Assembly (NCBI GenBank): GCA_964610105.1
Contig: CAZSUU010000015.1
Location: forward strand, 11,600-75,599
Reading direction: 5' to 3'
Length of the DNA: 64,000 nt
Source: an uncultured Verrucomicrobiota bacterium
GTDB lineage: Bacteria; Verrucomicrobiota; Kiritimatiellia; PWTM01
Both the position numbers and the translations under genes were made by a program. Position 1 is the first letter of the stretch; the number at the start of each line of letters is the position of its first letter. This document shows, in pieces, positions 4,119 through 50,616 of this stretch. The notes below the pieces were generated by a model. That model was not told the origin of the DNA. It saw only the letters and a program-made list of their open reading frames with translations, and did no database searches.

Positions 4119-4120
4119 TC

Positions 4121-7681: not shown

Positions 7682-7819
7682 GAACCCATCATGCCCTGTC
7701 TCGCGCCATTTTCCCATGCGATTCACCGTCCACACTTCGGCTTGCCGTCCGAGGCGGGAAGCGCGATGCTGCCGCGCATGGTGAAGTCGCAGACCCATGA
7801 CAAAGGAGCCCGCCCGTCC

Positions 7820-9465: not shown

Positions 9466-9562
9466 ATGTCTCCACTGCTTGTCGGTGGTCCCTGCGGGGT
9501 GGAGGGGCGAGCCATGCGAGCCCGGCCGATGCGCGTCGATTCGTCGCGAAAGGAGAGTAGCC

Positions 9563-10495
9563 ATGTCCCGCACGCTCAGTTCCGTGGCGCCCGACTGGTG
9601 GGATTACACGACCCTTGATGCCGCGTTGGTGTCCGAAGCGGCGGCGCTGACGCCCGAGCGGATGAGGCGCCTGTCGCGGCCGGGTTTTCAGGTGGTCTTT
9701 CACGACACGCTGGAGGACTTCTACCTTGCCGAGGCGCTGGAATACGTCGACGCGTGGCGACAGTCCACGGACGACAATCCCGTCGGCGTCTGCGGTCCCA
9801 TCGGCCCCACCGAGCAGCTTCCGCTCGTCGCGCGGATCGTCAACGCCCTCGCGCTCGATGTGCGGTCCGCGCATTTCTGGGGCATGGACGAATGGGTCGT
9901 CGACGGCCGCGAGGTGCCGGCGGATCACCCGCTGTCGTTCGAAAAGGCCGATCGCGACCTGTGTTTCCGGCGCATCGATCGGCGGCGGGTCATGCCGGAT
10001 GCGCACCTGCATTTCCCGAAGGCTGACACGCGCGCCTACCGGGCGACCTGGTCGGCGGGGGTCCGCTGCGCCGTGATGCAGGGGGGCCAGGGCGACGTGA
10101 AGCACTGGGCGTTCAACGATCCGTTTCGCCGCAAGGGCCGGTATCGCCAGGCGCCGCCCCCGGCGCGGGAGTTTCTGGCCCTTCTCGCGCGGGTCGTCGA
10201 CCTGCACCCGCTCACGGTCGCGCAGAACGCCCGCACGAGCGGCGGCGGCAACATCGCCCTGGTCCCCACGCAGGCCGTCACCGTCGGGCCGGCGGAAACC
10301 TGGAAGGCGGAGAAGGTGTCGATCTGGCAGGCAGGCCACCACGACAATCCGTTCGGCCAGCGGCTGACCTGCCTGATGGTCGCGCGGCGGATCGTCGACA
10401 CCGCCGTACCCATGTCGCTGCTGGCGCTCCACCCGAACGTGGAGTTCCACTACTACCGGGGCGGCCTCGGAACCTGCGCGGTGGAGATGCACTAG
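9563..10495 (+). CDS. glucosamine-6-phosphate deaminase/isomerase family protein (NagB-like)
   Basis: AAAGGAGAG Shine-Dalgarno sequence upstream. Motifs [15 protein letters not shown] and [15 protein letters not shown] resemble the NagB/6-phosphogluconolactonase fold. Internal start of ORF 9374..10495. Confidence 0.62.
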
Positions 10496-10514
10496 ACAGA
10501 CGGAGGAGCATGCG

Positions 10515-11783
10515 ATGAAGACGACCTGCACGCGACGTTCGTTTCTCCGGGCCGGCGCCGTGGCGGCGACGACCACCCTGGCGGCGCGGGCGCTCGATGC
10601 CGCCACCCGCGCCCGGGCGATCGGCGCGAACGACCGGATCCGCCTCGGGCTCATCGGCTGCGGCGGACGCGGCGTTGGCGCCCACCTCGCGGCCGTGCGC
10701 GAGCACGCCCAGGCGGCGAACCTCGAGGTCGTGGCGGTGACGGATCCCTGGCGGCCGGCCCGGGAGAACGCCGCGGCGAGGGCGAAGGAGTGGCTCGGCC
10801 GCGAACCGCGCCTGTGCTCGACCTACCGCGAACTCCTCGCCCTGCCGGAGGTGGACGCGGTGATGATCGCCTCCCCCGATCACGCCCACGCGACCCACCT
10901 CGAAGCGGCGGCCAGGGCGGGCAAGCACGCGTACTGCGAGAAGCCGATGGCCATCGGGATGGACGAGCTGATCCGCGCGGTGGACGCCGTGAAGGAGTCG
11001 GGCATCGTGCTGCAGGCCGGCACCCAGTTGCGCAGCACGCCGGGGGCCGTCGGCGCCCGCGACCTGCTCAAGACCGGCGTGCTGGGCCGGATCTCGCGCT
11101 GCGAGCAGGTGCGCAACGGCGACCGGCCCTACTGGTACGGCTACCAGAAGAAGGAGGTGAAGAAGGAGGACCTGGACTGGGCGGAGTTCACGATGGGACG
11201 CACGCGGCGGCCGTTCGATCCGACGCTCTATTCGGCGTGGTACGGCTACTACGAGTTCTCGCAGGGGCCGGTTCCGCAGTGGGGCAGCCACTACATCGAT
11301 CTCATTCACTTCGTCACCGGTCTGCACCTGCCCGAGACGTGCGTCTGCCTCGGCGGCGTCTACACGTGGAAGGACGAGAACCGGTTCACGGCGCCCGACC
11401 AGGTGCACGCCCTCTGGCACTATCCCGAAGGCGTGATGGTGAGCTACACGACGAACTTCGGAAACAGTTTCGGCAACGGCACGCGCGTGCTCGGCGAGAA
11501 GGGCCTGCTCCGGCTCGACGACGCCGACAAGCCCGTCTACACGGCCGAGGGCGGGATCAAGCGCGACGGATCGATCCGGGGCGAGAACAAGGTCACCCCG
11601 GTCGCGTGCCCGGACCATTTCCTCAACTGGTTCCAATGCCTCCGCAGCGGCGCCACGCCGCAGGCGCCGCTGGAGGCGGGCTACCAGCATTCCGTCGCGT
11701 GCATCATGGCCATGACCTCCTATGAGACCGGCGGCCGCACGCGCTTCGATGCCACCCAACGCCGCATCGTGAAGGAAGGCTGA
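10515..11783 (+). CDS. Tat-exported Gfo/Idh/MocA family oxidoreductase
   Basis: Twin-arginine signal MKTTCTRRSFLRAGAVAATTTLAARA. Rossmann motif RLGLIGCGGRG and the EKP motif. The opposite-strand ORF 10278..11936 was rejected. Confidence 0.8.
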   Translation: MKTTCTRRSFLRAGAVAATTTLAARALDAATRARAIGANDRIRLGLIGCGGRGVGAHLAAVREHAQAANLEVVAVTDPWRPARENAAARAKEWLGREPRLCSTYRELLALPEVDAVMIASPDHAHATHLEAAARAGKHAYCEKPMAIGMDELIRAVDAVKESGIVLQAGTQLRSTPGAVGARDLLKTGVLGRISRCEQVRNGDRPYWYGYQKKEVKKEDLDWAEFTMGRTRRPFDPTLYSAWYGYYEFSQGPVPQWGSHYIDLIHFVTGLHLPETCVCLGGVYTWKDENRFTAPDQVHALWHYPEGVMVSYTTNFGNSFGNGTRVLGEKGLLRLDDADKPVYTAEGGIKRDGSIRGENKVTPVACPDHFLNWFQCLRSGATPQAPLEAGYQHSVACIMAMTSYETGGRTRFDATQRRIVKEG

Positions 11784-13532: not shown

Positions 13533-14822
13533 ATGAAGTTCAGAATGTCGGCGGTGTGTCTGGCGACCTTGTCGCTCTGTGCTCTGACGGTGCACCACGC
13601 GGCGGCCGAAGGATCATCGGCCCCCGTCGTGAAGACGGGCGCGCGGGTGGCCGTCATCGGCGACTCCATCACCGAGCAGAAGCTTTACAGCCGCTACATC
13701 GAGACCTACCTCGTCGCGTGCCAGCCGCAGCTCGACGCCCGCGTGATGCAGTTCGGCTGGAGCGGCGAGCGCGCCGCGGGATTCGCCGGCCGGATGGCGA
13801 ATGATCTCACCCCCTTCAAGCCCACCGTCGCGACCACCTGCTACGGGATGAACGACGGCCGGTACGGTCCCTATTCCGACGAGGTCGGCAAGTCGTACGA
13901 GGATCCCATGCGCGACATCGTCAAGCGGCTCAAGGCCGCCGGCGCGGTGGCCGTCGTCGGCGCACCCGGCGCCGTGGACACGAAGTACTACCAGCGCGGC
14001 TCGCCGGATTCCGCGAAGGAGTACAACGCCACGCTTGCCCGCCTGCGCGACATCGCGCGCCGGGTGGCCGCGGACGAGGGCATGCCGTTCGCGAACGTGC
14101 ACGACGTGCTGATCGAGACGATGTCGAAGGCCAAGGCGGCGCGGGGCGAAGGCTATGACGTCTGCGGCGGCGATGGCGTCCATCCCGCCCCCAACGGCCA
14201 GCTCGCCATGGCCTACGCGTTCCTCAGGGCCATGGGATTCGACGGCGACCTCGGAACGATCACGGTCGATCTGGCCGGCCCGTCCAGCGCCGCGAACGGC
14301 CACCGCATCGTCGGGCAGGAGGGCGGCACGGTGCGGATCGAGAGCGCCCGGTACCCGTTCTGCTTCAGCGGCGACGAGCAGTCCTCCGGCAGCCCGCGAA
14401 GCATCCTCCCCTTCCTGCCGTTCCAGCAGGATCTGAACCGCCTCACGCTGGTCGTCCGGAACGCGAAGGGACCGAAGGTGAAGGTGACATGGGGCGACGC
14501 GGCGAAGGTCTTCGACCGCGCGGACCTGGAGAAGGGCATCAATCTCGCGGTCGAGTTGCCCGAGAATCCCTTCTCGCCGGCCTTCAAGGGCGTCGACGGC
14601 GCCGTGGGGAACAAGCAGGCCTTCGAGACCTTCATGATCAAGAACAACATCACCGAGTATCCCCAGGCGAAGAGGTTCATCGGCCAGGACGCGGAGGCGC
14701 TGGCCGCGCTGGAGGCATTCCACCGCAAACTCTGGGAGCGCGAGGAACGGCTGCAGGCCGCCGTCAAAGCCGCCTTCCAGCCGGTGCAGCACACGATCGT
14801 GGTTGAGGATGCCGCGCCGTAG
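13533..14822 (+). CDS. secreted SGNH/GDSL-family hydrolase (lipase/esterase/carbohydrate esterase)
   Basis: AGGAAAAG Shine-Dalgarno sequence 8 nt upstream. Signal peptide MKFRMSAVCLATLSLCALTVHHAAA. Block I VAVIGDSIT, block III GMNDG and block V GDGVHP are present. An alternative start exists at 13518. Confidence 0.72.
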   Translation: MKFRMSAVCLATLSLCALTVHHAAAEGSSAPVVKTGARVAVIGDSITEQKLYSRYIETYLVACQPQLDARVMQFGWSGERAAGFAGRMANDLTPFKPTVATTCYGMNDGRYGPYSDEVGKSYEDPMRDIVKRLKAAGAVAVVGAPGAVDTKYYQRGSPDSAKEYNATLARLRDIARRVAADEGMPFANVHDVLIETMSKAKAARGEGYDVCGGDGVHPAPNGQLAMAYAFLRAMGFDGDLGTITVDLAGPSSAANGHRIVGQEGGTVRIESARYPFCFSGDEQSSGSPRSILPFLPFQQDLNRLTLVVRNAKGPKVKVTWGDAAKVFDRADLEKGINLAVELPENPFSPAFKGVDGAVGNKQAFETFMIKNNITEYPQAKRFIGQDAEALAALEAFHRKLWEREERLQAAVKAAFQPVQHTIVVEDAAP

Positions 14823-14978
14823 CGGCCTCGCCGACGCCGGGAGCGGTTCTGCATGGCATCCGTGGCCGCGTCGTCCCGCGACGCACCCGCCGCCTTTGCC
14901 ACCTTCTCGGACGCCGTACGCGTCCCTGCGCCGCGGCGGGGGGTGTCGTGCGGTCCGGGTTCCCGGTTGGCCGCCCCC

Positions 14979-17882
14979 CTACAGGAAGAAACCCTGTTCA
15001 TAGATGGCGCGGTTATCGGCCGGCGGCGCTCCGGCATCGGGCCGCGAGGATGCCGGGCGAGGCGCGGACAGCCCGACCTTCCACTCCCGGTACTGCTGGC
15101 GCACGCGATCCAGCACGTCGGCGAAGTACTGGAGGTGAGGATTCCGGTCGTCGATCATCTGCCCCAGCCCTATGAAGGTGTAGATGTTCACCCACTCCCC
15201 GCCCACTTCGATCTCGAGGTCCGGATTCGGAACATAGTAACCCCGCCGAAGCCGCAGGAAGAGCCGCCGGTTGCGGGGCGCCGGGCTGAACATCTCGTTG
15301 CCGGCCAGCGCCGCCGTGATCGCCCCGCGATGCCGGCGATGCAGCGGCAGGACGCGATTCGGGAACTGGCCCAGGTGGTGCACGATGTCGCCGGTCTGGA
15401 GGCCGGGGACCGCATACTCGATCTTGCGGCGCAGCAAGTCCTGCAGCAGCGCCACCATGACCTCGAAGACGAAGAACTCCATGCGGTGCCGGTCGATCTT
15501 GTGAAGCTGGCCGTCGGTCTTCACGTTGACCGCGGCGGGGGCCAGCAGATCGTAGATCCGCCCCAGGCTGTCGCGGGCGTAGCCGGCCACCATGAACGCC
15601 TGCCGCAGCGCGACATGAAAGGCCGTCCGTCCGAAGTTGTCACGCAGATGCGGATTCGAGCCCTGCCGCATGAGATCCTCGACAAGATCCGGCATGCCGC
15701 GACAGGCCGCGATCATCAGCGGCGTCTGGTTCAGCGGATTCCTGAAGTCCACGCCGTATTTCTCCAGTTTCTGCCGCAGCACGGTCAGGCTTCGCTCGGC
15801 ATAGTCGGCCTGATACTTGCGCTCGATGTTCGGCAGTTCCGCGACGAAACGCGCCGCGCGGCTGAACTTCATTTCTTCCAGACGGCAAAGGCGTGGGAGG
15901 TCGCAGTACGTCGCCGCGTACTCGAACAGCAACTGCTTGGCCTGCTTGTTGAATCGTTCCGGATCGAACGCCTCGCGGTCAAGGTCCGCGAGGTTCGAAG
16001 GTGTCAGCACCTTCCAGGGGACCGGCTGCTGGGACAGGATCGTTCGCCGGATCGCCTCGGCCTGCTCCTCCTTGCCCTGCATCTCCAGCCGGCGCGCCTC
16101 GGTCTTCCACTCCTCCGCGGTCGAGGACTGCGACCGGACCTTCACGCCCGTGGTGGCGGGGCGAAGATCCAGCAGGGCGAGGAACGGGTGGACGCCGTGC
16201 TGCTCGACCACGTACAACGTTCGCACCGCCCTCGTGACGGCGACAAAGAAGGCGTTGATGAAGAACTTGTAGACGTCCAGCGACTTGTCCGTCTTGTCGC
16301 GCGCCCGCGCATACTGGAGCTCGGCCTCCAGGTCGGCGGCGGACACGCCCTCGGCGATCTCGGCAAAATCGCGGTTCGACGACGACACCATGTTGAACAG
16401 CACGATGGTCTCGTATTCGAGCCCCTTCGCCTCCTGGATCGAGAACACCAGCGGCGTGCGAAACGATCGACGGGCCCCGGCCTTGTCCTCCTCCCGCAGG
16501 ACGATCACGGCCACGCGCGCGGAGCGGCACGTCTTGTCGTCCAGGTCGCGCACGACCGCGGGGCCGGCGTCGAGCAGATGCGCTTCTCCCTCCACTCCGG
16601 CGGTGCTGCGGGCCAGGTAGGTGCTCTCGCGGTCCACCGAGCCGAACCGCGCGTTCTTGACCCGCAGGATCCGGTTGGCGAGGTCGGTGATGCAGGGGGC
16701 GTTGCGGTAGTTGGCGTTGAGGATGCGCACGATCTCGGCCCGCCCCTGCATCCGCTGCTCGTAGAACATGCTCTTGAGGGCGGACCACGAGAAGAAGTTG
16801 GGGTGCACCACCTGGTTCGCATCGCCGCAGAGCACGAAGTTGCCGGGCTGACGCAGGGCGGCCAGGACCAGGTGCACCTGCATGTTGGTCAGGTCCTGCA
16901 CCTCGTCCAGCATCACGGCATCGTAGCGCTTCTCCACATGCGCCTGCGCGCGGTGCGACTCGATGTTGAGGTCGTAGAGGCCGTCCTCCGCGAGCCAGGA
17001 CCGGTACTTCTCGAACAGGGCGTACACGGCTTCGCGCTCGTCGGCGTTAAAGATCGATCGCCGGACGCCCAGCGACAGGTAGTCCTCCCGCTCGAGCCAG
17101 GGCCGGTCGACGGCGGCGCCGGTCAGCACGCCGCTGAACTCCTCGAAGAGCCGGTGCGCGTCCTTGACCGGCGAAGCGGTCCGATGACGGGCAAACCAGC
17201 CGGCAAAGGCGCGGAAGCTCACCGGCCGTCCCGCCGGAACCCGCACACTCTCGAGGTACTCCTTGAACGACAGGAAATCCACGTCCTGCCGGTCGTTCTC
17301 ATACCCGTGGGAGAAGTAGAGGCGGCTGGCGTGCTCCGCCAGGAACGGGGAGAGCGTGATGTACGCCACCTCGCCCGTCAGCCTCTTGAGTTTCTCCAGC
17401 ACCACGGCCGTCTTTCCGCTTCCGGCCGAGCCGATCAGAATGAGGGGCGGAGGCAGGTGCAGGGCCTCGTGCTGGTCGTCGTCGAACGAGAGCACCTTGT
17501 CGAGGAGGTGGAAATACCGCCGCCCGGGGTGCACGTACGCCAGGGCCAGGGCCTCGGCGGCCGCATCGTCCGGCGGGGCGTGCAGCGGTTGGAGTCGGGT
17601 CTCGTCCACGACCGCGCCGTTCAGGAACCGCGCGCGGTCATAGGCATGGTTCTCGATGATCTCGAGAAGGAGAATGCACCGCGCGCCCGCGTAGTCGCCC
17701 AGGCGGAAGACCAGACGGTCGGCGGCCGACAGTTCCGCGCGGTAGTACGGCGTCGGCGTCAGTTTCTTGACGTTGGCCGCGCGGAAGTCGCCGGCCCGCA
17801 GCGCCGCGACCACCCGCTCGAAGGCCCCTGCATGACGACCGGGGTGTAGATCCCCGTGAACCAGGATTTCCATGGGGGGCAT
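14979..17882 (-). CDS. UvrD-like superfamily-1 helicase with an N-terminal RelE/YoeB-like segment and C-terminal ankyrin repeats
   Basis: Walker A LILIGSAGSGKTAV. DExx motif II MLDEVQDLT. Motif III LCGDANQ. Motif V/VI SIQEAKGLEYETIVLF and VAVTRAVRTLYV. Residues 40-90 (KKLTPTPYYRAELSAADRLVFRL...CILLLEIIENHAYDRA) follow the RelE/YoeB toxin pattern. The C-terminal NPLNQTPLMIAACRGMPDLVEDLMRQGSNPHLRDNFGRTAFHVAL is an ankyrin repeat. The antisense ORF 14853..17849 is junk. Confidence 0.8.
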   Translation of the reverse strand: MPPMEILVHGDLHPGRHAGAFERVVAALRAGDFRAANVKKLTPTPYYRAELSAADRLVFRLGDYAGARCILLLEIIENHAYDRARFLNGAVVDETRLQPLHAPPDDAAAEALALAYVHPGRRYFHLLDKVLSFDDDQHEALHLPPPLILIGSAGSGKTAVVLEKLKRLTGEVAYITLSPFLAEHASRLYFSHGYENDRQDVDFLSFKEYLESVRVPAGRPVSFRAFAGWFARHRTASPVKDAHRLFEEFSGVLTGAAVDRPWLEREDYLSLGVRRSIFNADEREAVYALFEKYRSWLAEDGLYDLNIESHRAQAHVEKRYDAVMLDEVQDLTNMQVHLVLAALRQPGNFVLCGDANQVVHPNFFSWSALKSMFYEQRMQGRAEIVRILNANYRNAPCITDLANRILRVKNARFGSVDRESTYLARSTAGVEGEAHLLDAGPAVVRDLDDKTCRSARVAVIVLREEDKAGARRSFRTPLVFSIQEAKGLEYETIVLFNMVSSSNRDFAEIAEGVSAADLEAELQYARARDKTDKSLDVYKFFINAFFVAVTRAVRTLYVVEQHGVHPFLALLDLRPATTGVKVRSQSSTAEEWKTEARRLEMQGKEEQAEAIRRTILSQQPVPWKVLTPSNLADLDREAFDPERFNKQAKQLLFEYAATYCDLPRLCRLEEMKFSRAARFVAELPNIERKYQADYAERSLTVLRQKLEKYGVDFRNPLNQTPLMIAACRGMPDLVEDLMRQGSNPHLRDNFGRTAFHVALRQAFMVAGYARDSLGRIYDLLAPAAVNVKTDGQLHKIDRHRMEFFVFEVMVALLQDLLRRKIEYAVPGLQTGDIVHHLGQFPNRVLPLHRRHRGAITAALAGNEMFSPAPRNRRLFLRLRRGYYVPNPDLEIEVGGEWVNIYTFIGLGQMIDDRNPHLQYFADVLDRVRQQYREWKVGLSAPRPASSRPDAGAPPADNRAIYEQGFFL

Positions 17883-18002
17883 ATCCTCACACGCGCCGGG
17901 AGAAGGTCAATGCGGATGTGCGCCACCCCGCGCCGGCCGCCGCTCCTCGCCAAAACCGGCCGGCGCTGGTACAGTAGGCGCGTACCAACCCATGGAGCGA
18001 CG

Positions 18003-18765: not shown

Positions 18766-19509
18766 ATGGATGGGATGAGCCGGGAGCGTCTCGACATTCT
18801 GGTCGTGTCGCGGGGCCTCGCGGAGAGCCGCGAGAAGGCGCAGCGGCTCATACGGGCCGGCGCCGTCCGGGTGGCGGGCGCCGTGCGCACGAAGCCGGGG
18901 GAGGGCGTGAAATCCGACGTCGAAATCGCGGTGGACCCGCCCGAGCGCTTCGTCAGCCGCGGCGGGGAGAAACTGGAGGAGGCGTTCCAGCGGTTCTCCC
19001 TGCGGGTCGAGGGGCGGGTATGCGCCGACCTGGGCGCCTCCACCGGGGGCTTCACCGATTGCCTGCTGCAGCACGGGGCGGCCAGGGTCTACGCCGTCGA
19101 CGTCGGCCGCGGCCAGCTGCACTGGAAGCTCCGCCAGGACCCGCGGGTCATCGTGATGGACGGCCGCAACGCGCGCCATCTCGGGCGCGCGGACTTCCCG
19201 GAGCCCGTGCGTTTCGTCGCGATCGACGTGTCCTTCATTTCGTTGACGAAGATCCTCCCCGCGGCTAAAGACATCCTCGAACCCGGGGGCGAGGCGGTCA
19301 CGCTGATCAAACCGCAGTTCGAGGCGGGCCGGACCGAGGTCGGCCGGGGCGGGGTGGTGCGCGACGAGGCCGTGCGCGCCGCGGTGGTGGAACGCGTCCG
19401 GGCCTTCGGCTCGGCCGAGGTGGGGCTGGAATGGGTGGGTGTATGCCCGTCGCCCATCCGGGGGCCGGCCGGCAACGTGGAGTTCCTTGCGTATTGGAGA
19501 CGGCCATGA
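18766..19509 (+). CDS. tlyA: TlyA family rRNA (cytidine-2'-O)-methyltransferase
   Basis: S4 domain RLDILVVSRGLAESREKAQRLI followed by an FtsJ-like methyltransferase with GASTGGFTD. The tlyA-nadK adjacency is conserved in many bacteria. Confidence 0.8.
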   Translation: MDGMSRERLDILVVSRGLAESREKAQRLIRAGAVRVAGAVRTKPGEGVKSDVEIAVDPPERFVSRGGEKLEEAFQRFSLRVEGRVCADLGASTGGFTDCLLQHGAARVYAVDVGRGQLHWKLRQDPRVIVMDGRNARHLGRADFPEPVRFVAIDVSFISLTKILPAAKDILEPGGEAVTLIKPQFEAGRTEVGRGGVVRDEAVRAAVVERVRAFGSAEVGLEWVGVCPSPIRGPAGNVEFLAYWRRP

Positions 19510-20366
19510 AGGTGATCGGGGTCACGGCAAACTGCGCCAAACCGCGGGCCCCCGAGGTCCTGGCCCGCCTTTCGGGCGCGGCCCGGAGCCTCGGATTCGA
19601 GCTCGTGACCTGTGACGAGACGGCGGATCTGCTGCCCGGTTCGCGTTCCCTGCCCCAGGCCGACTTCGTGCAGTCGGTCGACGTCCTCATGGCGCTGGGG
19701 GGCGACGGCACGATGCTTCACGCCGCGCGCATCCTCGACGGGCACGACATCCCGGTCATCGGCGTGAACCTCGGCAGCCTGGGCTTCATGACCAGCGTCA
19801 CCGACGGCGATCTCGAATTCGCCCTCGAAAGCCTGCGGGGCGGCCAGTTCACCTTCTCCAGGCGGACCGTCGCCGAGGCCGCGCTGTGGCGCAACGGCCA
19901 GTCGCTCGGCGCCCACCGGGCGCTTAACGACATCGTCATCGGGTGGGGGGAAACCTCGCGGGTGGTCACGCTCAATCTGACCCTGGACGACGAGGGCGTG
20001 GGCACGTACATCTGCGACGGGCTGATCCTGTCGACGCCCACGGGCAGCACGGGGCATTCGCTCTCGGCCGGCGGCCCCATCCTGCTGCCGGAATCGCCGG
20101 TCTTCGTTCTGAACCCGATCTGTCCGCACACCCTCAGCAACCGGCCGCTGGTGGTGCCGGACCGTTGCACCATCGAGATCACCGTCGTCGATTCCTCCAA
20201 GCGGCAGCTCTTCGTGGTCGACGGGCAGGACCACCAGAAGATCATGAAGGGAGACCGCGTCGCGGTCCGCCGCGCCGCCACGGGCATCCGGTTCGTCCAC
20301 CTGCCCGGCTACAGCTACTTCTCCCTCCTGACGCAGAAACTGCACTGGCGGGCGTCGAACATCTGA
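19506..20366 (+). CDS. nadK: NAD(+) kinase
   Basis: GGDGTML motif and the NDIV and DGLILSTPTGSTGHSLSAGGP motifs. The ATG overlaps the tlyA stop (ATGA). Internal start of ORF 19431..20366. Confidence 0.85.
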   Translation: MKVIGVTANCAKPRAPEVLARLSGAARSLGFELVTCDETADLLPGSRSLPQADFVQSVDVLMALGGDGTMLHAARILDGHDIPVIGVNLGSLGFMTSVTDGDLEFALESLRGGQFTFSRRTVAEAALWRNGQSLGAHRALNDIVIGWGETSRVVTLNLTLDDEGVGTYICDGLILSTPTGSTGHSLSAGGPILLPESPVFVLNPICPHTLSNRPLVVPDRCTIEITVVDSSKRQLFVVDGQDHQKIMKGDRVAVRRAATGIRFVHLPGYSYFSLLTQKLHWRASNI

Positions 20367-22195: not shown

Positions 22196-22378
22196 CTACA
22201 GGGGGCGGAGCCAGATGAGGAGCCCTCCCGCGACCGCGAGGAGGGCGGTGAACAGGGCCGTCCTACGCCGGAAGGGTCTGGAGCCCAGCCCGGCGGCGAT
22301 GTCCGCCTCGTTCCGTTTGCCGACCAGCGCGCCGATCAGCAGGGCCAACACGAAATCACGAACGAGCGTCGGATCCAT
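22196..22378 (-). CDS. hypothetical small membrane protein
   Basis: 60 aa from MDPTLVRDFVLALLIGALVG. Two predicted TM helices. No family recognised. Weak call. Confidence 0.3.
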   Translation of the reverse strand: MDPTLVRDFVLALLIGALVGKRNEADIAAGLGSRPFRRRTALFTALLAVAGGLLIWLRPL

Positions 22379-22392: not shown

Positions 22393-22448
22393 GGGCTTCG
22401 CGGGCGAAGTCGAAGAACCAGACTCCAGGGCTTCGCAAGCGAAGCCCT
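22393..22448 (-). terminator. two tandem GC-rich hairpins immediately after the larC stop (candidate terminator or attenuator)
   Basis: AGGGCTTCGC-AA-GCGAAGCCCT is a perfect 10-bp stem abutting the larC TAA stop. A second hairpin GGCTTCG-CGGG-CGAAGTC lies about 25 nt further on. There is no clean U-tract. Confidence 0.4.
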
Positions 22449-23692
22449 TACGCACGTTCCGCAGGGGCGTCGCCCGCCGACGCCCGTGCCGCCTCGAAGA
22501 CCACCCGCGGCGCCACCCCGTGTTCCGTCGCGCGTGCGATGCAGTCTTCCATCTCGGGCGCTCGAGTGACCACGCCGCCCTTCCACTCCCCGATCTTCAC
22601 GCGGATGTCGCCGTAGGGCGTGGGCACGGCCTCCCACCGCCGCGCCAGCACCGTCCGCCGCACCGCGTGCTCGCGCACGCCGAACGTCGTGGATTGACGG
22701 AAGATGAGGTCGAGCAGCGCCTCGCGATGCTCCGGCCGGCAGAGCACGCTCAGCAGCACGCCCGGCCGGTGTTTCTTCATCTGCACGCCGACGGTGAATA
22801 CATCCAGCGCCCCGGCTTCGAGCAACCGCGGGAGGAGGGCGCCGATCCACTCCCCGGAACAGTCGTCCATCTCGCATTCCAGGACCAGGCAATGCTCCAC
22901 GGCGCCGGCCGGCTCATCCGATTCCATGAGCACGGCACGGAGCGCATTCGGCCGGCCCTGGAGTTCATGGTGACCGAATCCCAGTCCGGCCCGCACGACG
23001 CGGCCCTCGGCCGGCGCGGCGGCCACGGATTTCCACTCCATCAGCAGGGCCGCCCCGGTCGGCGTGACCATCTCCTTCTCCTCGTCCACGCGCCGGACGG
23101 GAAAGCCCCGGAGCAGTTCCACCACGGCCGGCGCGGGCAGCGGGTACTCGCCGTGGGCGCAGCGGACGGTCCCGCCCCCGACGGGCAGGGCGCCCACGTC
23201 CACCGCATCGACGCCCAGCGCGTGCAGGGCCCAGCAGGCGCCGACGATGTCGGCGATGGAGTCGGCGGCGCCGACCTCGTGGAAGTGGATCTCCTCGAGC
23301 GGGCAGTTGTGTACGCGCGCTTCCGCCTCCGCCAGGCGGCGGAAGACGGCCCGGCTCCGCTCCGCCACGGGGCCCGGCAGCTTCGCGCGCCCGATGAGGC
23401 GTTCGATCTCCTCGAGATGGCGGCGCGTCCCGTCCGAGTGCCGCGGACCGTGCCCGTGGGGTCCGTGGGCGTCCGCGTGTCGCCGGCGCACGACCCGCCG
23501 CGTGTGCACACGCACCGCGGTCCCCGTCAGCCCGTGGCGCGTTTCGCGCCGGGCCTCGATGCGGATCGGCTCCATCGGGAAGCCGTCGAGGGCCGACTGG
23601 ATCGCGTCCGGGGCCACGCCGAGGTCCACCAGCGCGCCCAGCACCATGTCGCCGCTGGCGCCGCCGACGCTGTCGAAACGCACGAACTTCAC
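22448..23692 (-). CDS. larC: nickel-pincer cofactor biosynthesis protein LarC (CTP-dependent nickel insertase)
   Basis: N-terminal MKFVRFDSVGGASGDMVLGAL matches the LarC/DUF111 signature. GTG start overlaps the larB stop (GTGA). 414 aa. Confidence 0.8.
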   Translation of the reverse strand: MKFVRFDSVGGASGDMVLGALVDLGVAPDAIQSALDGFPMEPIRIEARRETRHGLTGTAVRVHTRRVVRRRHADAHGPHGHGPRHSDGTRRHLEEIERLIGRAKLPGPVAERSRAVFRRLAEAEARVHNCPLEEIHFHEVGAADSIADIVGACWALHALGVDAVDVGALPVGGGTVRCAHGEYPLPAPAVVELLRGFPVRRVDEEKEMVTPTGAALLMEWKSVAAAPAEGRVVRAGLGFGHHELQGRPNALRAVLMESDEPAGAVEHCLVLECEMDDCSGEWIGALLPRLLEAGALDVFTVGVQMKKHRPGVLLSVLCRPEHREALLDLIFRQSTTFGVREHAVRRTVLARRWEAVPTPYGDIRVKIGEWKGGVVTRAPEMEDCIARATEHGVAPRVVFEAARASAGDAPAERA

Positions 23693-24438
23693 CGCGGTTC
23701 TCCGATCCGGTTGATCATCGCCGCCGCCACGCCGGCGCCGAATCCGTTGTCGACATTCACCACCGTGATGCCCGGCACGCAGCTGTTCAGCATCGCCAGA
23801 AGGGCGGCGATCCCCCCGAGGTTCATGCCGTAGCCGACGCTGGTCGGCACGGCGATGACGGGGCAGTCCACGAGCCCGCCGACCACCGACGGGAGGGCCC
23901 CTTCCATCCCGGCCACGACCACGATCGCGCGGCAGCCGCGCAGCATGTCCACATGCCGCATCAGCCGGTGGAGGCCGGCGACGCCGACGTCGAACACGCG
24001 CTCCACGCGGGCGCCGAGCCGCTCGGCGGCCAGGGCGGCCTCCTCGGCCACGGCGATGTCGGAGGTGCCGGCGGTCACGACGGCGACGCGTCCGACCGGC
24101 TCCGGGCGGGGTCCGGCATCCAGCGTGATGCAGCGCGCGGCCTCGTGGTAGACGGCGGCCGGGTGGGCGGCGCGCACGGCGGCGGCGGTCTCGGCGGAGG
24201 CGCGGGTGGCCAGGACGTCATGCCCGCGGGCGATCATGGCGGAGGCGATGGCGGTCACCTGTCCGGGCGTCTTGCCCGCGCAGTAGATCACTTCCGGCAC
24301 GCCGCACCGGCGCCGGCGGTCCAGGTCGACCCGCGCGAACCCGAGATCGGATTCCCGCCCGTGCGCGATCCGCTCCAGCGCGGCGGCCACGTCCATCCGG
24401 CCGGCCGCCACCGCCTCCAGGAGTTGCTTCCAGTCCAT
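23689..24438 (-). CDS. larB: nickel-pincer cofactor biosynthesis protein LarB (PurE-like carboxylase/hydrolase)
   Basis: PurE-like C-terminal domain (VAVVTAGTSDIAVAEEA and AIVVVAGMEGALPSVVGGL). GGAGGGAG Shine-Dalgarno sequence upstream of the ATG at 24438. The 5' extension of ORF 23689..25008 overlaps the next gene and was rejected. Confidence 0.8.
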   Translation of the reverse strand: MDWKQLLEAVAAGRMDVAAALERIAHGRESDLGFARVDLDRRRRCGVPEVIYCAGKTPGQVTAIASAMIARGHDVLATRASAETAAAVRAAHPAAVYHEAARCITLDAGPRPEPVGRVAVVTAGTSDIAVAEEAALAAERLGARVERVFDVGVAGLHRLMRHVDMLRGCRAIVVVAGMEGALPSVVGGLVDCPVIAVPTSVGYGMNLGGIAALLAMLNSCVPGITVVNVDNGFGAGVAAAMINRIGEPR

Positions 24439-24464
24439 CTTCTCCCTCCGCCGCCGGCGGCCGC

Positions 24465-25184
24465 CTATGCCTCGAACGGCCGGCGCCGCGACCTGCACGT
24501 CCGCACCCGCCGTTCCGCCGCCATGCAGGCGACGGTGCGCGCCATCGTCTCGTTGTCCATGCTTCCCGTGTTGAACACCACGTCGTACAGGAGGGGATCG
24601 TCGATGTTCTTGCCGTAGTAGTCCCGCACCAGCCGCGCCCGCTCCTGTTCCTGCTTCCTCATCTCCCGGCGGGCCTCCTCCAGCGTGTTGCCCAGCACCT
24701 CCATCATGCGGCGCACGCGATGCTCCTCCGGGGCCACCAGCCGGACGTGGATGCCCGTCCGCAGGTCGCTCGCCACGCACATGCCGGCGCGCCCGATGAT
24801 GACGACCTTGCCGATGTAGGCCAGGAAGCGGACGACGCCGGCGATGCGTTTCTGCAGCAGGTATTGCTCGGCGCGTCCCACGAACATCTCGTAGACCTGC
24901 TGATGCAGGCCCACCTCGTATTCCTCCCGGAGGAGCGAATCGAACGAGGCCTGGTTCTCGGGATCCTGGGCGAGGTAGGCGCAGAGCTTCTGGTCGAACA
25001 GATCCCATCCCCGGTTCCAGGTCTCGTCGGGCCGGGCGTCGAGGTGCCGGATGATCTCCCGCCCGAGCGTGTGACCGCCCGCGCCGGGCTGACGGGAGAT
25101 GGTCACGAAGGGATAGCCGTGGTCCGCGACGTCCACGTCTTCCTCGCGCTCCAGGTAGCGCTTCAGCAGTTCCGCATGATTCAT
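24465..25184 (-). CDS. cytidylate kinase-like family protein (P-loop NMP kinase-like)
   Basis: P-loop-like VTISRQPGAGGHTLGREI near the N-terminus. Size (239 aa) and pattern match the cytidylate-kinase-like PF13189 family. Lies directly upstream of larB in the same orientation. Confidence 0.6.
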   Translation of the reverse strand: MNHAELLKRYLEREEDVDVADHGYPFVTISRQPGAGGHTLGREIIRHLDARPDETWNRGWDLFDQKLCAYLAQDPENQASFDSLLREEYEVGLHQQVYEMFVGRAEQYLLQKRIAGVVRFLAYIGKVVIIGRAGMCVASDLRTGIHVRLVAPEEHRVRRMMEVLGNTLEEARREMRKQEQERARLVRDYYGKNIDDPLLYDVVFNTGSMDNETMARTVACMAAERRVRTCRSRRRPFEA

Positions 25185-25473
25185 ACGACTCGCGACTCCG
25201 CTCCCGGCCGCGAACGGCAGCCGGCCGGCCCCGGCCGTTTCATGTCTCCGCGCCAGCCCGTCCTCTCGTGCGCACCCGCGCCGCCTTCGGCGGCTGTCCC
25301 GCCGCTGTTCTCACGAGCGCCGCCTCCTCGGTGACACCCTTCGCGCCGTCGCCCGGTCGTGCGGCACAACCATCCGACGTCGCCCGTTCGGCAAGGCCCC
25401 GAGGGCAGGGCGATTGTGGCCATCCTTCGCCCGCAGTTCAAGCTTTCCCGTACGGGGTGGCCCCCGATACCAT

Positions 25474-25770
25474 GAAGGCATGGATGGCGACGGCAGGAGC
25501 GACGGGTCGCCGGGGCCGGCCGACGGGGGCGCGCCGCGGGGTTCGTCATTGTTCGGGGTGCAACTCGCGGTCGGTTTCCTCCTGCTCGCGTGGCTGGGGG
25601 GATGGGTGGGCCGGCGCCTCGGCCATCCCCGCGGCGGGGTGCTCGCGGGTGTGCTCGCGGGATTCGGCTATCTCGCCTTCGAGACGTGGAAGGCCATCCG
25701 CCTTTCGGGCGATGACACGCCCAACCGCCGGCCACCCCGGCCTCCGCCGGGCGACTCGCCGGACGTGTGA
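25474..25770 (+). CDS. AtpZ/AtpI-like small membrane protein preceding the ATP synthase operon
   Basis: Two TM helices (LFGVQLAVGFLLLAWLGGWVGRRLG and GGVLAGVLAGFGYLAFETWKAI) as in the ATPase_gene1 family. Internal ATG of ORF 25414..25770. Confidence 0.5.
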   Translation, partial: EGMDGDGRSDGSPGPADGGAPRGSSLFGVQLAVGFLLLAWLGGWVGRRLGHPRGGVLAGVLAGFGYLAFETWKAIRLSGDDTPNRRPPRPPPGDSPDV

Positions 25771-25912
25771 GGCGGTCCGCCGCGGCCGGATCGGTCGTTT
25801 CGGCGGAAATCCGCCTTCCGTCCACGGGGGGGGCGGGCGGGCCCCGCCGGGACACCGCGCCATTGCCGAAAACGCGCGGGCATGCGATAATGGAGCGGGT
25901 GTAGGGTTAACC

Positions 25913-32630: not shown

Positions 32631-33851
32631 TCACGAGACCGGCGCCGCGCCGTCCGTCGCCTGTCCTTCGAGCAGCGTCCAGCCATACCACAGCATGCGC
32701 GGCAGGTGGAACGGACCCTTCCACATCGAGCCCTTGAGCGGGCTGGCCCGGCGCCCGTCGCGGCGCAGGTAGCCGTACCACTCGCCGAACTCGCGATCCG
32801 GGAAGTGGCGAAACGACCACGCATGCACCTTGCGGTGCCACTCCGCGTACTTCGGCCGGCCCGTCATCGCGTGCGCCAGCAGCGTCGCGATGACCGCCTC
32901 GTTGTGCGGCCACCAGAACTTCATGTCCTGCCAGTACTCCTGCACCGGCCGGCCGCGCACGTCGGTGAAGTAGAGGATGCCGCCGAACTGCCGGTCCCAT
33001 CCGCGCGCCCACATCCAGTCGAGGATCTTCAGGCCGAGCGCCCGGTAGTCCGCGCGCCCGCGCAGGCGAGCCTCGTGCAGGATGAACCAGGCGCATTCGA
33101 ACGAGTGACCGGGGTTCAGCATGCGGCCGTCGAAGTGGTCGTACACCTCGCCGCGCGGCCCCACGCATTCCATGAGCGCCTTCAGCCGGGGCTTGAGGAA
33201 ATCGCGGCGGATCTCGGCCACGGCGCGGTCGATCCACTCCGTGCACGCCGCCCCCTCCACGCGCACATCGCCCAGATGGGCACGGAGTTCCTGCGCCGTC
33301 GCGATCGTCATCATCAGTGGCGAGAGCCCCTTCATCGGCCGCGTCCGCGGGTCCGACTTCGGAACGATGCGGCCGGGCTCCCGGTGGTACCGGAGGAACG
33401 TGCCGAACGTCCGGACCGCATCCCGCGCGGCTTTCCTCTCCCCTGTCGCCTTCGCCCAGGCGGCGAACGCGATGGCGGCGAAGCACTCGCTGAAGACGTA
33501 GCGGCGCATCCTCAGCGGCCGGCCCTCGCGGGTGACGGTGAAGTAGAGTTTGCCGTTCGGGGCAAAACAGCGCCGGCGCAGGAAGTCGACGCCCAGGCGC
33601 GCCGCCTCGAGCCACGCGCGGCGCGGTTCCACGGTGTTGAAGAGCGTGGCGAACATCCACGCGCCCCGGCCCTGGAACCAGACCGACTTGTCCGTGTCCA
33701 CCACCGTCCCGTCGCGGTCGAGGGCGGTGAAGTACCCGCCGTGCCTTCGGTCCAGCCCGTGGCGGAGCCAGAACGGGATGACGTCGTCCAGCAGCGTCCG
33801 CCGGTAAAAGCCGGCCAGCCGCATCAGTTGCGCCCTGGAGTACGCGCTCAT
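32631..33851 (-). CDS. AGE-family epimerase/isomerase (N-acylglucosamine 2-epimerase-like)
   Basis: (alpha/alpha)6-barrel AGE family pattern: DVIPFW, GGYF, DKSVWFQGR, WFILHEA, GGILYF and FWWPHNEA. Start at MSAYSRAQL, the internal Met at position 60 of ORF 32631..34028. Confidence 0.75.
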   Translation of the reverse strand: MSAYSRAQLMRLAGFYRRTLLDDVIPFWLRHGLDRRHGGYFTALDRDGTVVDTDKSVWFQGRGAWMFATLFNTVEPRRAWLEAARLGVDFLRRRCFAPNGKLYFTVTREGRPLRMRRYVFSECFAAIAFAAWAKATGERKAARDAVRTFGTFLRYHREPGRIVPKSDPRTRPMKGLSPLMMTIATAQELRAHLGDVRVEGAACTEWIDRAVAEIRRDFLKPRLKALMECVGPRGEVYDHFDGRMLNPGHSFECAWFILHEARLRGRADYRALGLKILDWMWARGWDRQFGGILYFTDVRGRPVQEYWQDMKFWWPHNEAVIATLLAHAMTGRPKYAEWHRKVHAWSFRHFPDREFGEWYGYLRRDGRRASPLKGSMWKGPFHLPRMLWYGWTLLEGQATDGAAPVS

Positions 33852-33870
33852 GCCCCGGCGTTCCTGCCCC

Positions 33871-35349
33871 TCACCGGCTTCCCGCGGCGCTGCCCCTCGC
33901 CAGCTTCCCGCGGGCATCCCGCCAGCCTCTGCCGTGATTGAGCAGCGCGGCGAGACGATCAACCTCGGCCTTGTGTGCGGCATCCTCGACGAGGTTCCGC
34001 GCGGCGAGGGGTCCGCGCTCGTGGTCATACAGCTCGCGCGCCTGCATCGCGCCGGTCTTCCGGACGATCCACTCGGTGTAGCGCCACCGCCCGCTGCGCA
34101 GGGTGTAGCCCATCAACGCCCCGCGCGGGTACTGACTGAACGAGGCCTCCTTCCACGGGCGGGCGGGGTCGGCGAGGAGCGGCGCGAGGCTCGTGCCCTC
34201 GCAGTGCGCGGGCACGCCCAGGCCGCAGACCTCGGTGAGCGTGGGATAGAGATCCACGAATTCGACGAGCGCCTCGCTCGACTTGCCGTTGCCCGCTTGA
34301 CCGGGGACCGAGACAATCAGCGGCGCATGCGTGTCAAGCTCGAGATTCGTGTGCTTGCACCACGCGCCATACTCGCCGAGCTTCCACCCGTGGTCACCCC
34401 ACAGCACGACCACCGTCCGGTCAGAAAGCGCCAGCCGCTGAATCGCGTCCAGCAGCCGCCCCACCAGTGCGTCCGTGTAGCTGACGCACGCGTGGTAGCC
34501 GTGGATCAGGCGCAGCGCCCATTTGTCATCGACCGCTCCCTTCGCCGGAATCCCGGTGTATTGCCGCATCTCGCCCCACCCTGAACCGGCTATCGGCGGC
34601 ATACCCTCCGGCCATTCGCGTTGCGCGGGTACGGCGAAGTCGGTCTCCTTGTACAGATCCCAGTATCGTTTCGGCGCGTTGAAGGGCAGGTGCGGCTTGA
34701 TGAAGCCCACGGCGAGGAAGAACGGTTTCCCGCCGCCCGCCAGCCGGCGCATCTCCTCCTGCGCCTTCACGGCCGTGCGGCCGTCAGGATACTCTTCGTC
34801 GGCCACATCGGCGCACTCGAACGCCGGACCAAGCCCCTTGCCCTTCGCGCCGTTGTCCCTCACCTCCGACGCGAGATAGCCGCGGCCCTTCCACGGACCT
34901 TCCGGATGCCAGGCGGGCAGGCTCCAGCCCTTGCCGTTATCGTCGTTCGCGTGGTGATAGATCTTGCCAAGCGACACGGTCTCGTAGCCGGCCTCGCGGA
35001 AATGCTGCGGCAGCGTGCGCACGTCGGGCAGCGTCTTGCGGAGAGGGTGTTCAAGGTCGAAGATGCCTGTCGAGTCAGGCCGCAGTCCGCTCAGCAGGCT
35101 GGCGCGCGAGGGGGCGCACACGGCCTGTTGGCAGTAGGCGCGGCGGAAGACCACGCCCGCCTCCGCCAGCCGGTCGATGTTCGGACTCCGGACGACCGGC
35201 GCCCCGAAACATCCGAGCGTTGGACGGAGGTCGTCGACCGCGATGAACAGGACATTCAGCCGCTCGGGCTTCTCCACGGCCGGTGAGGCGGAACCGCACA
35301 GAAGCGCCCAGGCAACCGCCCCCGCCCGCCAGAACACGTGATCTTCCAT
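33871..35349 (-). CDS. sulfatase (formylglycine-dependent arylsulfatase family)
   Basis: Signal peptide, then the signature CAPSRASLLSG (C-x-P-x-R). Start at MEDHVFWRAGAVAWALL. The antisense ORF 33850..34584 was rejected. Confidence 0.8.
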   Translation of the reverse strand: MEDHVFWRAGAVAWALLCGSASPAVEKPERLNVLFIAVDDLRPTLGCFGAPVVRSPNIDRLAEAGVVFRRAYCQQAVCAPSRASLLSGLRPDSTGIFDLEHPLRKTLPDVRTLPQHFREAGYETVSLGKIYHHANDDNGKGWSLPAWHPEGPWKGRGYLASEVRDNGAKGKGLGPAFECADVADEEYPDGRTAVKAQEEMRRLAGGGKPFFLAVGFIKPHLPFNAPKRYWDLYKETDFAVPAQREWPEGMPPIAGSGWGEMRQYTGIPAKGAVDDKWALRLIHGYHACVSYTDALVGRLLDAIQRLALSDRTVVVLWGDHGWKLGEYGAWCKHTNLELDTHAPLIVSVPGQAGNGKSSEALVEFVDLYPTLTEVCGLGVPAHCEGTSLAPLLADPARPWKEASFSQYPRGALMGYTLRSGRWRYTEWIVRKTGAMQARELYDHERGPLAARNLVEDAAHKAEVDRLAALLNHGRGWRDARGKLARGSAAGSR

Positions 35350-35399
35350 CCTCACTTCTCCACGGTGCGGCCCTCGGCGAAGGCCAACAGCTCGCACTC

Positions 35400-36317
35400 T
35401 CACCGGACCCACTCCCAGAACCCCATCGCGTCGAGTTCCGCGCGCAACTGCCTGACCTGCTCCGGCGTCAGCGTGGTGTTCGGCAGCCGGGCCGGGCCGA
35501 CGTCGACGCCGAGCATGCCCATGACCGCCTTGGCCGCGCCCATGTAGCCGAAGCCCGCCAGGGTCTTCACCAGCCGCACGCCGCGGTACTGCTCTTCGCG
35601 CGCCGTCACGAGATCACCGGCGGCAAACGCCTTCATCAGCCGCAGGTAGACCGGCGCGGCGAAGTTGAAGCCGCTGCCCACCGCGCCCCGGGCCCCGACG
35701 GCGAGCGCGGCGAGCATGGCTTCGTCGATCCCCCACGGCAGGTCGAACCCGCCGGGCGCATGCAGGCAGACCTGGTAGGCGAACAGGTCGGGATTGGTCC
35801 ACTTGATGCCCGCGAGACTGGGGATGCGTTCGCGGCCGCGCGCGAGGAAGTCCGGCATCGGCAGGGCGACGCCGGTGAGCGAGGGAATGTCGTAGTAGTA
35901 GAACGGCAGGTCCGGCGCGCCGCCGGCGATCCGCGCACAACCCTCGATGAGCACGTCCACGTCGCGCGGCTTGAAATACGACGGGGCGAACGCCGCCACG
36001 CCGGCGGCGCCGAGCAGCTGCGCCTCGACGGCCAGGTCCCGCGCATCGGCCAGGCAGTTGGAACCCACGTGTACGATCACGCGCATCGGCGTGCCGCGCG
36101 ACACCTCGATCCACCGCTGCGTCAGCCGGAAGCGCTCGTCGAGCGACAGCGAGTGGCTTTCGCCCGTGCTGCCGCCGACGAAGGCGATGTCGACCCCGTT
36201 CTTCAGGAGATGCGCCGCCTGCCGCTCCACCGCCTTCAGATTCAGCGATCCGTCCCCGTCAAAAGGGGTGTGCGTCGCCGCCACCAATCCCTCGATCTTG
36301 AATCCGTTCCTGCTCAT
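35400..36317 (-). CDS. DapA/NanA-family class I aldolase (N-acetylneuraminate lyase-like)
   Basis: Schiff-base lysine region LAGIKWTNPDL and an overall match to the DHDPS/NanA fold. GGAGG Shine-Dalgarno sequence 7 nt before the internal ATG (MSRNGFKIEG). Confidence 0.75.
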   Translation of the reverse strand: MSRNGFKIEGLVAATHTPFDGDGSLNLKAVERQAAHLLKNGVDIAFVGGSTGESHSLSLDERFRLTQRWIEVSRGTPMRVIVHVGSNCLADARDLAVEAQLLGAAGVAAFAPSYFKPRDVDVLIEGCARIAGGAPDLPFYYYDIPSLTGVALPMPDFLARGRERIPSLAGIKWTNPDLFAYQVCLHAPGGFDLPWGIDEAMLAALAVGARGAVGSGFNFAAPVYLRLMKAFAAGDLVTAREEQYRGVRLVKTLAGFGYMGAAKAVMGMLGVDVGPARLPNTTLTPEQVRQLRAELDAMGFWEWVR

Positions 36318-36343
36318 GTATGGGCCTCCGATCGCGGTTCGGG

Positions 36344-38926: not shown

Positions 38927-39013
38927 GCGCCCATCATACCGATCGCCCTGCAAACGACGATGAAAAGCGATTGGTTTCGTGATAGAACCTTCAATGGTGG
39001 GACGGGATGGAAC

Positions 39014-40111: not shown

Positions 40112-40199
40112 TCCCGCGCCGCGTCCGCAGGCCTCCTCCCGCCAGAACGGCGGGCTGCAGGCGGCCCGCCGTTCGACCGGACCCGGGATCCTCTTCCCG

Positions 40200-50577: not shown

Positions 50578-50616
50578 AGCCGTCCCGCCTCCGCTCCCCC
50601 GACGCCGGCCCGCCTT

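Follow-up and report, generated by a model that had tools for sequence, protein, structure and literature searches.

The stretch of DNA that we analysed, referred to here as the window, is 64,000 nucleotides (64 kb) long. On its minus strand lie three genes in the order CKL, larB and larC, followed by a hairpin, where CKL denotes a cytidylate-kinase-like gene. The original prediction had placed a cytidylate-kinase-like gene at the head of a unit with larB and larC, and this three-gene unit proved to be real, at the following positions.

24465..25184, minus strand: CKL, a PF13189 cytidylate-kinase-like protein of 239 aa that leads the unit (Pfam PF13189)
24439..24464, minus strand: CKL-larB spacer of 26 nt, with the Shine-Dalgarno sequence GGAGGGAG (read from the sequence)
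23689..24438, minus strand: larB, 249 aa, predicted pyridinium carboxylase/hydrolase of nickel-pincer nucleotide (NPN) biosynthesis (NF033503)
23689..23692, minus strand: GTGA overlap, the larC GTG start lying on the larB TGA stop (read from the sequence)
22448..23692, minus strand: larC, 414 aa, GTG start, predicted CTP-dependent nickel insertase in which LarC1 and LarC2 are fused (PF01969, TIGR00299, NF052512)
22428..22447, minus strand: hairpin GGGCTTCG-cttg-CGAAGCCC right after the larC stop, with a T-poor tail (read from the sequence)
25185..25912, no strand assigned: intergenic region separating CKL from the divergent atp operon (atpB start at 25913, plus strand)

The GTGA overlap at 23689-23692 can be read directly from the sequence as had been proposed, and would couple the translation of larC to that of larB. 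The 26-nt spacer between CKL and larB is too short for a terminator, which suggests that the genes on either side of it are co-transcribed, and a terminator scan found no terminator-like site within it. The transcription unit probably ends at the hairpin after larC, which the consensus terminator scan skipped because it has no T-run. Directly beyond the CKL start, atp genes lie on the opposite strand, both in public contigs and in relatives. The promoters of CKL and of the atp operon presumably both sit in the intergenic region, for which a promoter scan returned one sigma-70-like site (plus strand, 25863-25891). A search for riboswitches and other regulatory RNAs around the unit found none, the sole match being a chance snoRNA (E = 0.74). 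With the correct gene borders, the GC3 of CKL, larB and larC is 0.90-0.93, which is usual for this genome and thus gives no sign of a foreign origin for the unit. An apparently atypical codon-position GC in larBC was traced to an artefact, a stop-to-stop ORF that merged out-of-frame larB sequence with larC.

Both lar genes belong to their expected families. LarB matched NF033503 at 288 bits (cut-off 175) over model positions 1-208 of 209. Its start is the ATG at 24438, which is also called on public contigs, and not the start of the longer ORF at 25008. The protein is 58.5% identical to LarB of Lactiplantibacillus plantarum, with S126 (in GTSD) and C220 (in LNSC) at the positions of S127 and C221 in that enzyme. 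A role for C221 in L. plantarum LarB is reported by Rankin et al. 2021. An S127A variant of LarB has also been mentioned (PMC13524815). LarC matched PF01969 at 428 bits and is about 37% identical to L. plantarum LarC. Within one polypeptide it scored above the cut-offs for both LarC1 (TIGR00299, 201 against 90) and LarC2 (NF052512, 150 against 50), and a His-rich stretch with seven histidines at residues 63-92 corresponds to the nickel-binding region of LarC1. By family membership, larB-larC is an ordinary, intact pair predicted to supply two of the three enzymes of NPN synthesis.

Compared with the lar operon of L. plantarum (larA-larB-larC1/C2-larE), the window has the same larB-larC adjacency and order. 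By analogy the chemistry would be expected to be alike, with carboxylation and hydrolysis of NaAD followed by CTP-dependent nickel insertion. The window unit differs in lacking an upstream larA and a downstream larE, in being led by a PF13189 gene, and in encoding LarC as one fused protein, whereas the L. plantarum plasmid record has larC as two CDSs.

The absence of larA and larE from the window was borne out in each search. Neither Pfam, run on 40 candidate ORFs of the 64-kb window with the atp genes excluded, nor NCBIfam, run on the leftover and alternative-frame ORFs, detected PF09861, LarE, an AKR (PF00248 in Pfam) or a member of the ornithine-cyclodeaminase family; an AKR-type NPN enzyme is therefore also missing from the 64 kb. 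The best tblastn match of L. plantarum LarA and LarE to the window had E = 1.3, while as a control the same LarE query retrieved a Streptomyces LarE at 5e-29. A canonical lar cluster, with larE adjacent and larA or an AKR user nearby, is thus not what we find in these 64 kb. The three loci in which larBC is linked to CKL have neither larE nor larA within 8-10 kb of larBC, and in all five lineages examined larE is missing from the vicinity of larBC, so that the sulfur-insertion step is left without a gene in these data.

A larBC pair with no larE or larA nearby, as pointed out for this locus, is not special to it; the same stand-alone, overlapping pair occurs in two Kiritimatiellia relatives (L095 and L096). 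Here too, neither larE nor larA lies within 10 kb of larB-larC, and L096 shares the nadK-tlyA block found downstream of larC in the window. Unlike the window, they have no CKL upstream of the pair or within 10 kb of it, and no adjoining atp operon. Among surveyed genomes, about 15% have larBCE without larA (PMC11796402).

CKL is clearly a PF13189 protein (94 bits, Pfam cut-off 28). Its match to the Cmk model TIGR02173 reached 40.4 bits, below the cut-off of 102.1, and covered the C-terminal half only, and Pfam returned no PF02224 match. The P-loop, PFVTISRQPGAGGHT with the core GAGGHT, is atypical in that it has no Walker lysine, and the Walker A lysine (GxxGxGK[ST]) is found in none of the 47 CKL relatives that we aligned. 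Across these 47 sequences R31, R132, R148, R156 and R182 are nearly or fully invariant, as expected for phosphate binding, and C68 is invariant. An AlphaFold model of CKL (pLDDT 84.7) was compared with known structures using Foldseek. The top matches were 3hdt (E = 2e-9) and 3fdi, with target-normalised TM scores of 0.81-0.86 for the two. Dephospho-CoA, CMP, shikimate and adenylate kinases came next, with TM scores of about 0.5. The predicted fold is that of a P-loop kinase, and on this ground we rejected the idea that GAGGHT resembles the PP-loop of LarE. Judged by its sequence, CKL is not a cytidylate kinase.

The two closest structures are themselves PF13189 proteins, one a "putative kinase" from Clostridium symbiosum (3hdt) and the other an uncharacterised protein from Eubacterium ventriosum (3fdi), and they share with CKL the family, the fold and a lysine-less G-[SA]-G-G P-loop. 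Unlike other PF13189 proteins, the CKLs of the PVC clade have their own motif, PFVTISR[EQ]xGAGGH[TS], and a fixed place beside the atp operon. Our literature searches found nothing on the function of PF13189 or on lactate racemase in Kiritimatiellia. They also found no paper that combines LarB, LarC and "cytidylate kinase", consistent with the suggestion that the association is undescribed.

We then considered how often CKL and larBC occur together in relatives. Searches with CKL alone as the query against genome and metagenome contigs returned nothing, and the relatives were found by alignment-based scans, giving 118 distinct loci, 98 of them with at least 1 kb of downstream sequence. Only two of these 98 loci (L005 and L142) have larBC downstream of CKL, both belong to the window's own clade, and no co-occurrence was found beyond it. 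The original prediction had named two observations that together would count against it, and the lack of co-occurrence in relatives was one of them. Neither larB nor larC was present in the flanks (up to 10 kb or 6 kb) of the CKL loci from GTDB species representatives (0/80) or from metagenomes (0/42). Within the window's clade, seven other lineages have no larBC downstream of CKL. In a neighbor-joining tree of AtpA, the window, L005 and L142 fall in one clade with four larBC-negative lineages (L012, L099, L143 and L101). The close relatives P0004, P0005, P0007 and P0019 also have no larBC downstream of CKL; P0017 was scored negative on only about 0.8 kb of downstream sequence, in which the next gene runs on the other strand. 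No alignment column separates the CKLs that are linked to larBC from those that are not.

The conserved neighbor of CKL is instead the divergent F1Fo atp operon, with atpB upstream of CKL in 35 of 94 loci; in the group at or above 55% identity this holds for 9 of 10 loci. The downstream neighbor is variable, being an EIIA-Ntr-like gene (PTS_EIIA_2) in about 16 loci, a sulfite-reductase-like gene (NIR_SIR) in six distinct loci, and larBC in three lineages. These three lineages keep the order CKL-larB-larC at 48-58% identity for CKL and 49-54% for LarC, and the junction between CKL and larB changes from the 26-nt gap in the window to a 4-nt gap in L005 and a 4-nt overlap in L142. The 4-nt overlap of larB with larC recurs in L142, L095 and L096, and the window LarC is nearer to those of the stand-alone pairs in L095 and L096 (56-57%) than to those of the linked lineages.

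We favor the explanation, at a probability of roughly 0.68, that an ordinary larB-larC pair was placed behind CKL in one PVC clade and that the linkage arose by chance at a variable junction and was then inherited as gene order. Under this model, larB-larC came to sit directly downstream of a conserved PF13189 gene in a single clade (Kiritimatiellia/Lentisphaerae-like PVC). That gene keeps a fixed place, transcribed divergently from the F1Fo ATP-synthase operon. A single transcript would probably carry all three genes, from the CKL promoter to the hairpin beyond larC. Going by family membership and published work, LarB would carboxylate and hydrolyse NaAD and LarC would insert nickel using CTP, while LarE and the enzyme that uses NPN are presumably encoded elsewhere in the genome. 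CKL itself would have a nucleotide-related function of its own, independent of the lar genes. Most likely, the juxtaposition arose once, in this clade only, and was then inherited and repeatedly lost. The mixture of larBC-positive and larBC-negative members in one clade fits a single origin with several losses.

An observation that counts against an accident is the persistence of the three-gene order, with tight junctions, in three diverged lineages, and operons that are kept for a long time often reflect shared function. The three LarC proteins are not each other's closest relatives, so independent juxtapositions, which would imply selection, could also have occurred. A phylogeny of LarC or LarB was considered as a way to tell a single origin of the linkage from several and was rejected because the identities are too flat (44-59% for LarC and 58-71% for LarB). 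On balance, we regard a functional link between CKL and larBC as unlikely, though not negligible.

Such a link could mean that CKL truly assists NPN biosynthesis in this clade, where it might recycle CMP or CDP for LarC or else bind or deliver a pyridinium mononucleotide intermediate. This role fits the shared direction and the close packing or overlap of the genes in three diverged lineages, the P-loop nucleotide-kinase fold, the conserved arginines and the fact that LarC releases CMP (PMC13510736). Against it, the Walker lysine is found in 0/47 aligned relatives, CKL falls under the Cmk cut-off, 96 of 98 loci have no adjacent larBC, the conserved partner is the atp operon, and there is no residue signature specific to lar. 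We also reason that the CMP from cofactor synthesis would be negligible next to the cellular pool. We consider an accessory role doubtful, and the dedicated CMP/CDP kinase partner of LarC that had been proposed is not supported by the missing lysine, the Cmk score, the linkage in 2/98 loci or the search for a lar-specific residue. Put more broadly, it seems a little less probable again that a lysine-less PF13189 protein was recruited to NPN synthesis in one PVC clade, as a partner that handles nucleotides or binds an intermediate for LarB or LarC, or even in place of LarE.

That CKL replaces the missing LarE, or is a non-LarA protein that binds NPN, in a self-contained new system strikes us as very improbable. 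The lack of larE and larA within 8-10 kb of the three linked loci and the invariant C68 are compatible with this idea, and non-LarA NPN enzymes of unrelated folds were recently found by neighborhood mining (PMC13524815). However, the predicted fold is a P-loop kinase and not the PP-loop ATP pyrophosphatase fold of LarE, C68 and the other conserved residues are equally kept in about 100 loci that have no lar genes in the vicinity, and relatives have stand-alone larBC pairs without CKL. The mining pipeline demands the joint presence of LarB, LarE and LarC, and it yielded hundreds of co-occurrences, 427 of them for AKRs (PMC13524815). Like the clusters it anchors, such as that of the AKR NphT, the window has a non-LarA gene directly adjoining NPN biosynthesis genes, but it has no LarE and its co-occurrence is confined to three lineages of one clade. 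Finally, larE, larA and an AKR are absent from the 64 kb and many sister lineages have no larBC at the same position, yet there is little chance that larB-larC is a functionless, decaying remnant of a lost pathway, as both ORFs are intact and well over their family cut-offs, LarB keeps the residues matching S127 and C221 and is 58-70% identical to homologues across phyla, and codon composition is normal.

If the link between CKL and the lar genes were functional, PF13189, for which there are two crystal structures, would gain its first assigned role, and NPN biosynthesis would have a fourth participant, just as the same neighborhood logic is bringing non-LarA NPN enzymes to light. As we read the data, the larB-larC of this bacterium adds a further pair of a known type, and its pairing with CKL looks like the gene order of one small clade and not a new step in the pathway. 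The case also carries a caution, in that a tight operon may be no more than inherited gene order, whether it is seen in one genome or even in three related genomes, as becomes clear when the comparison is anchored on the whole gene family and not on the window alone. For the function of PF13189, a better lead may be that a lysine-less P-loop protein keeps a fixed place next to the ATP-synthase operon across the PVC bacteria.

The cluster of CKL (the PF13189 cytidylate-kinase-like gene) with larB and larC, two genes of nickel-pincer nucleotide (NPN) synthesis, was borne out in every particular. The three genes lie in the same direction on the minus strand, and larB and larC are coupled at GTGA, where the GTG start of larC shares bases with the TGA stop of larB.

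Genes and features of the CKL-larB-larC unit and its flanks
upstream of CKL, divergent: complete F1Fo atp operon, atpB start at 25913
24465-25184, minus: CKL, first gene, 239 aa; Pfam PF13189 "cytidylate kinase-like family", 94 bits
CKL-larB spacer, minus: 26 nt, containing GGAGGGAG
ATG start at 24438, minus: larB, 249 aa; NF033503, 288 bits against a cut-off of 175
22448-23692, minus: larC, LarC1 and LarC2 domains fused, both well over cut-off
22428-22447, minus: perfect 8-bp hairpin directly 3′ of the larC stop
downstream, convergent to larC: 575-aa LRR protein, nadK and tlyA (nadK-tlyA pair at 18766-20366, plus)

A longer larB ORF starting at 25008 was rejected in favor of ATG 24438, which gene calls on public contigs also use. 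With correct borders, GC3 is 0.90-0.93 in all three genes, similar to neighboring genes; an apparent composition anomaly in larBC was discarded, as it came from an ORF in which larC was run together with larB sequence from another frame. LarB shares 58.5% identity with the characterized L. plantarum enzyme, whose S127 and C221 correspond to S126 and C220 here, and neither LarB nor LarC departs from the ordinary for its family. The hairpin was missed by a consensus terminator scan because its tail is T-poor, and no known RNA element was found around the unit. Just past the hairpin is a 60-aa hydrophobic ORF (22196-22378, minus), which public contigs list as a gene and which matches no family.

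The noted absence of larA and larE from the window also held. A Pfam scan of 40 further candidate ORFs (atp genes excluded) and an NCBIfam scan of leftover and alternative-frame ORFs found no LarA (PF09861), LarE, aldo-keto reductase, a kind of enzyme recently shown to use the NPN cofactor (PMC13524815), or ornithine cyclodeaminase. In tblastn, L. plantarum LarA and LarE from an annotated plasmid gave a best E of 1.3 against the window; the same LarE query does detect Streptomyces LarE (5e-29).

Several other genes of the window were noted. A plus-strand run at 2511-11783, 11-20 kb from larBC, encodes two PF01261 xylose-isomerase-like TIM barrels, two Gfo/Idh/MocA oxidoreductases and a PIG-L deacetylase; its annotation is that of NAD-binding oxidoreductases, and it was among these that PMC13524815 found hidden NPN users. 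On the minus strand, an uninterrupted 1288-codon ORF (36344-40207) joins NanM (PF24996) N-acetylneuraminate epimerase repeats to a sodium:solute symporter (PF00474) within a sialic-acid-type cluster (GlcNAc 2-epimerase, 32631-34112; sulfatase, 33871-35613; DHDPS/NanA-like, 35400-36350). A 964-aa protein (14979-17906, minus) shows an unusual pairing of weak UvrD-helicase core matches with ankyrin repeats, and an ACT-domain-pair gene sits between two paralogous AMP-binding, phenylacetate-CoA-ligase-like genes (49249-52400, minus).

The phyla that carry CKL are also rich in LarC homologs (51-59% identity), and we inspected the neighborhoods of two Kiritimatiellia loci (L095 and L096) together with the three loci where CKL is linked to larBC. 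Both L095 and L096 carry larB and larC as an overlapping pair on its own, with no CKL, larE or larA within 10 kb; therefore, judging from these two stand-alone loci, it is normal in the phylum for larBC to lie far from larE and larA. About 15% of surveyed genomes carry larBCE without larA (PMC11796402). L096, which has no CKL there, also carries nadK-tlyA (14697-16303) about 3.5 kb downstream of larBC. The pair common to L096 and the window suggests that larBC is syntenic with nadK-tlyA and would have arrived at its current location within that block. A NAD kinase beside a pathway that consumes NaAD may be coincidence.

The original prediction described CKL as cytidylate-kinase-like and as a possible dedicated CMP/CDP partner of LarC. 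The likeness stands at the level of family and fold: the AlphaFold model (pLDDT 84.7) has a P-loop nucleotide-kinase fold, best matched by 3hdt and 3fdi, both structural-genomics PF13189 entries, and then by dephospho-CoA, CMP, shikimate and adenylate kinases at a TM of about 0.5. Judged by sequence, the enzymatic identity does not. The only kinase model touched, TIGR02173, gives 40 bits where its cut-off is 102, over the C-terminal half only, and where the Cmk P-loop reads GAGKGT, that of CKL reads PGAGGHT, with glycine and then histidine replacing the lysine. That lysine occurs in none of 47 aligned relatives, and by the available tests CKL is a PF13189 protein and not a cytidylate kinase. 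Across the alignment, five arginines (R31, R132, R148, R156 and R182) vary little or not at all, which suggests that CKL still binds a phosphorylated ligand. A literal CMP-recycling role seems unlikely on quantitative grounds, by our own reasoning.

Co-occurrence with larBC across genomes, put forward as a check, was not borne out. We collected 479 CKL homologs, mostly from Kiritimatiellia, Lentisphaerae and Verrucomicrobiota, and examined 80 loci from GTDB species representatives and 42 metagenome loci. All three sources gave 118 distinct loci after removal of duplicates, 98 of which extend 1 kb or more downstream. Only two of these 98 (L005 and L142) have larB and larC downstream, and neither gene was near CKL in any of the 80 GTDB loci (flanks up to 10 kb). 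No alignment column separates CKLs with larBC downstream from those without, so CKL appears to be constrained alike in both. The association amounts to a gene order confined to one clade and is no conserved partnership.

Conservation lies on the other side of CKL. A divergent atpB lies upstream in 35 of 94 loci with enough upstream sequence, and in 9/10 of a close group (at least 55% identity), and the atp operon is the only conserved neighborhood of CKL. The PF13189 clade adjoining it in Kiritimatiellia, Lentisphaerae and Verrucomicrobiota MAGs has the lysine-less P-loop GAGGH[TS]. The co-directional gene downstream differs by sublineage.

Neighbors of CKL
divergent atp operon: window 24465-25912; L012-L063, L099-L116, L142-L146
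PtsN-like PTS_EIIA_2, directly downstream (about 16 loci), about 170-230 nt after CKL: L036, L047, L048, L053, L055, L057, L062, L063 and others
PTS_EIIA_2, further positions: L005 2836-3282; L142 707-1180
562-aa NIR_SIR (sulfite/nitrite-reductase-like), co-directional, downstream in six distinct loci of one Kiritimatiellia sublineage: L007/L008 10774-14876; also L015, L019, L030, L033, L103
larBC, downstream in three lineages: window, L005, L142

Other loci have PTS_EIIA_2 at the opposite end of the atp operon and, taking both positions together, EIIA-atp-CKL forms a loose block; the window yielded no EIIA homolog. NIR_SIR is followed in L007/L008 by a Fer4/Pyr_redox_2 protein.

In a neighbor-joining AtpA tree without support values, the window, L005 and L142 fall in one clade with the larBC-negative L012, L099, L143 and L101. 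In the CKL tree, likewise neighbor-joining without support values, unlinked close relatives (P0004, P0005, P0006, P0007, P0014, P0017, P0019) are seen for every linked tip, L005 being P0016 and L142 P0020. The simplest reading of these trees is that the CKL-larBC order would have arisen once at the base of the clade, larBC then being lost from several of its lineages. Repeated loss is plausible because the NPN pathway is patchily distributed.

Some functional link between CKL and larBC is improbable, yet it keeps a small share of our confidence because the order CKL-larB-larC is kept despite divergence (CKL 48-58%, LarC 49-54% identity), the genes are tightly packed (both junctions overlap by 4 nt in L142, with gaps of 4 nt in L005 and 26 nt in the window), and no larE was found near larBC in five lineages. 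The three linked LarCs are also not mutual nearest relatives, which leaves room for independent juxtapositions. Against such a link, the conserved side of CKL is the atp operon, with larBC downstream at so few loci. We found no description of the CKL-larB-larC arrangement in the literature searched, in keeping with the suggestion that it was undescribed. The arrangement is thus new to that literature, nothing in the data indicates a new mechanism, and the atp neighborhood may be the better clue to the function of CKL.
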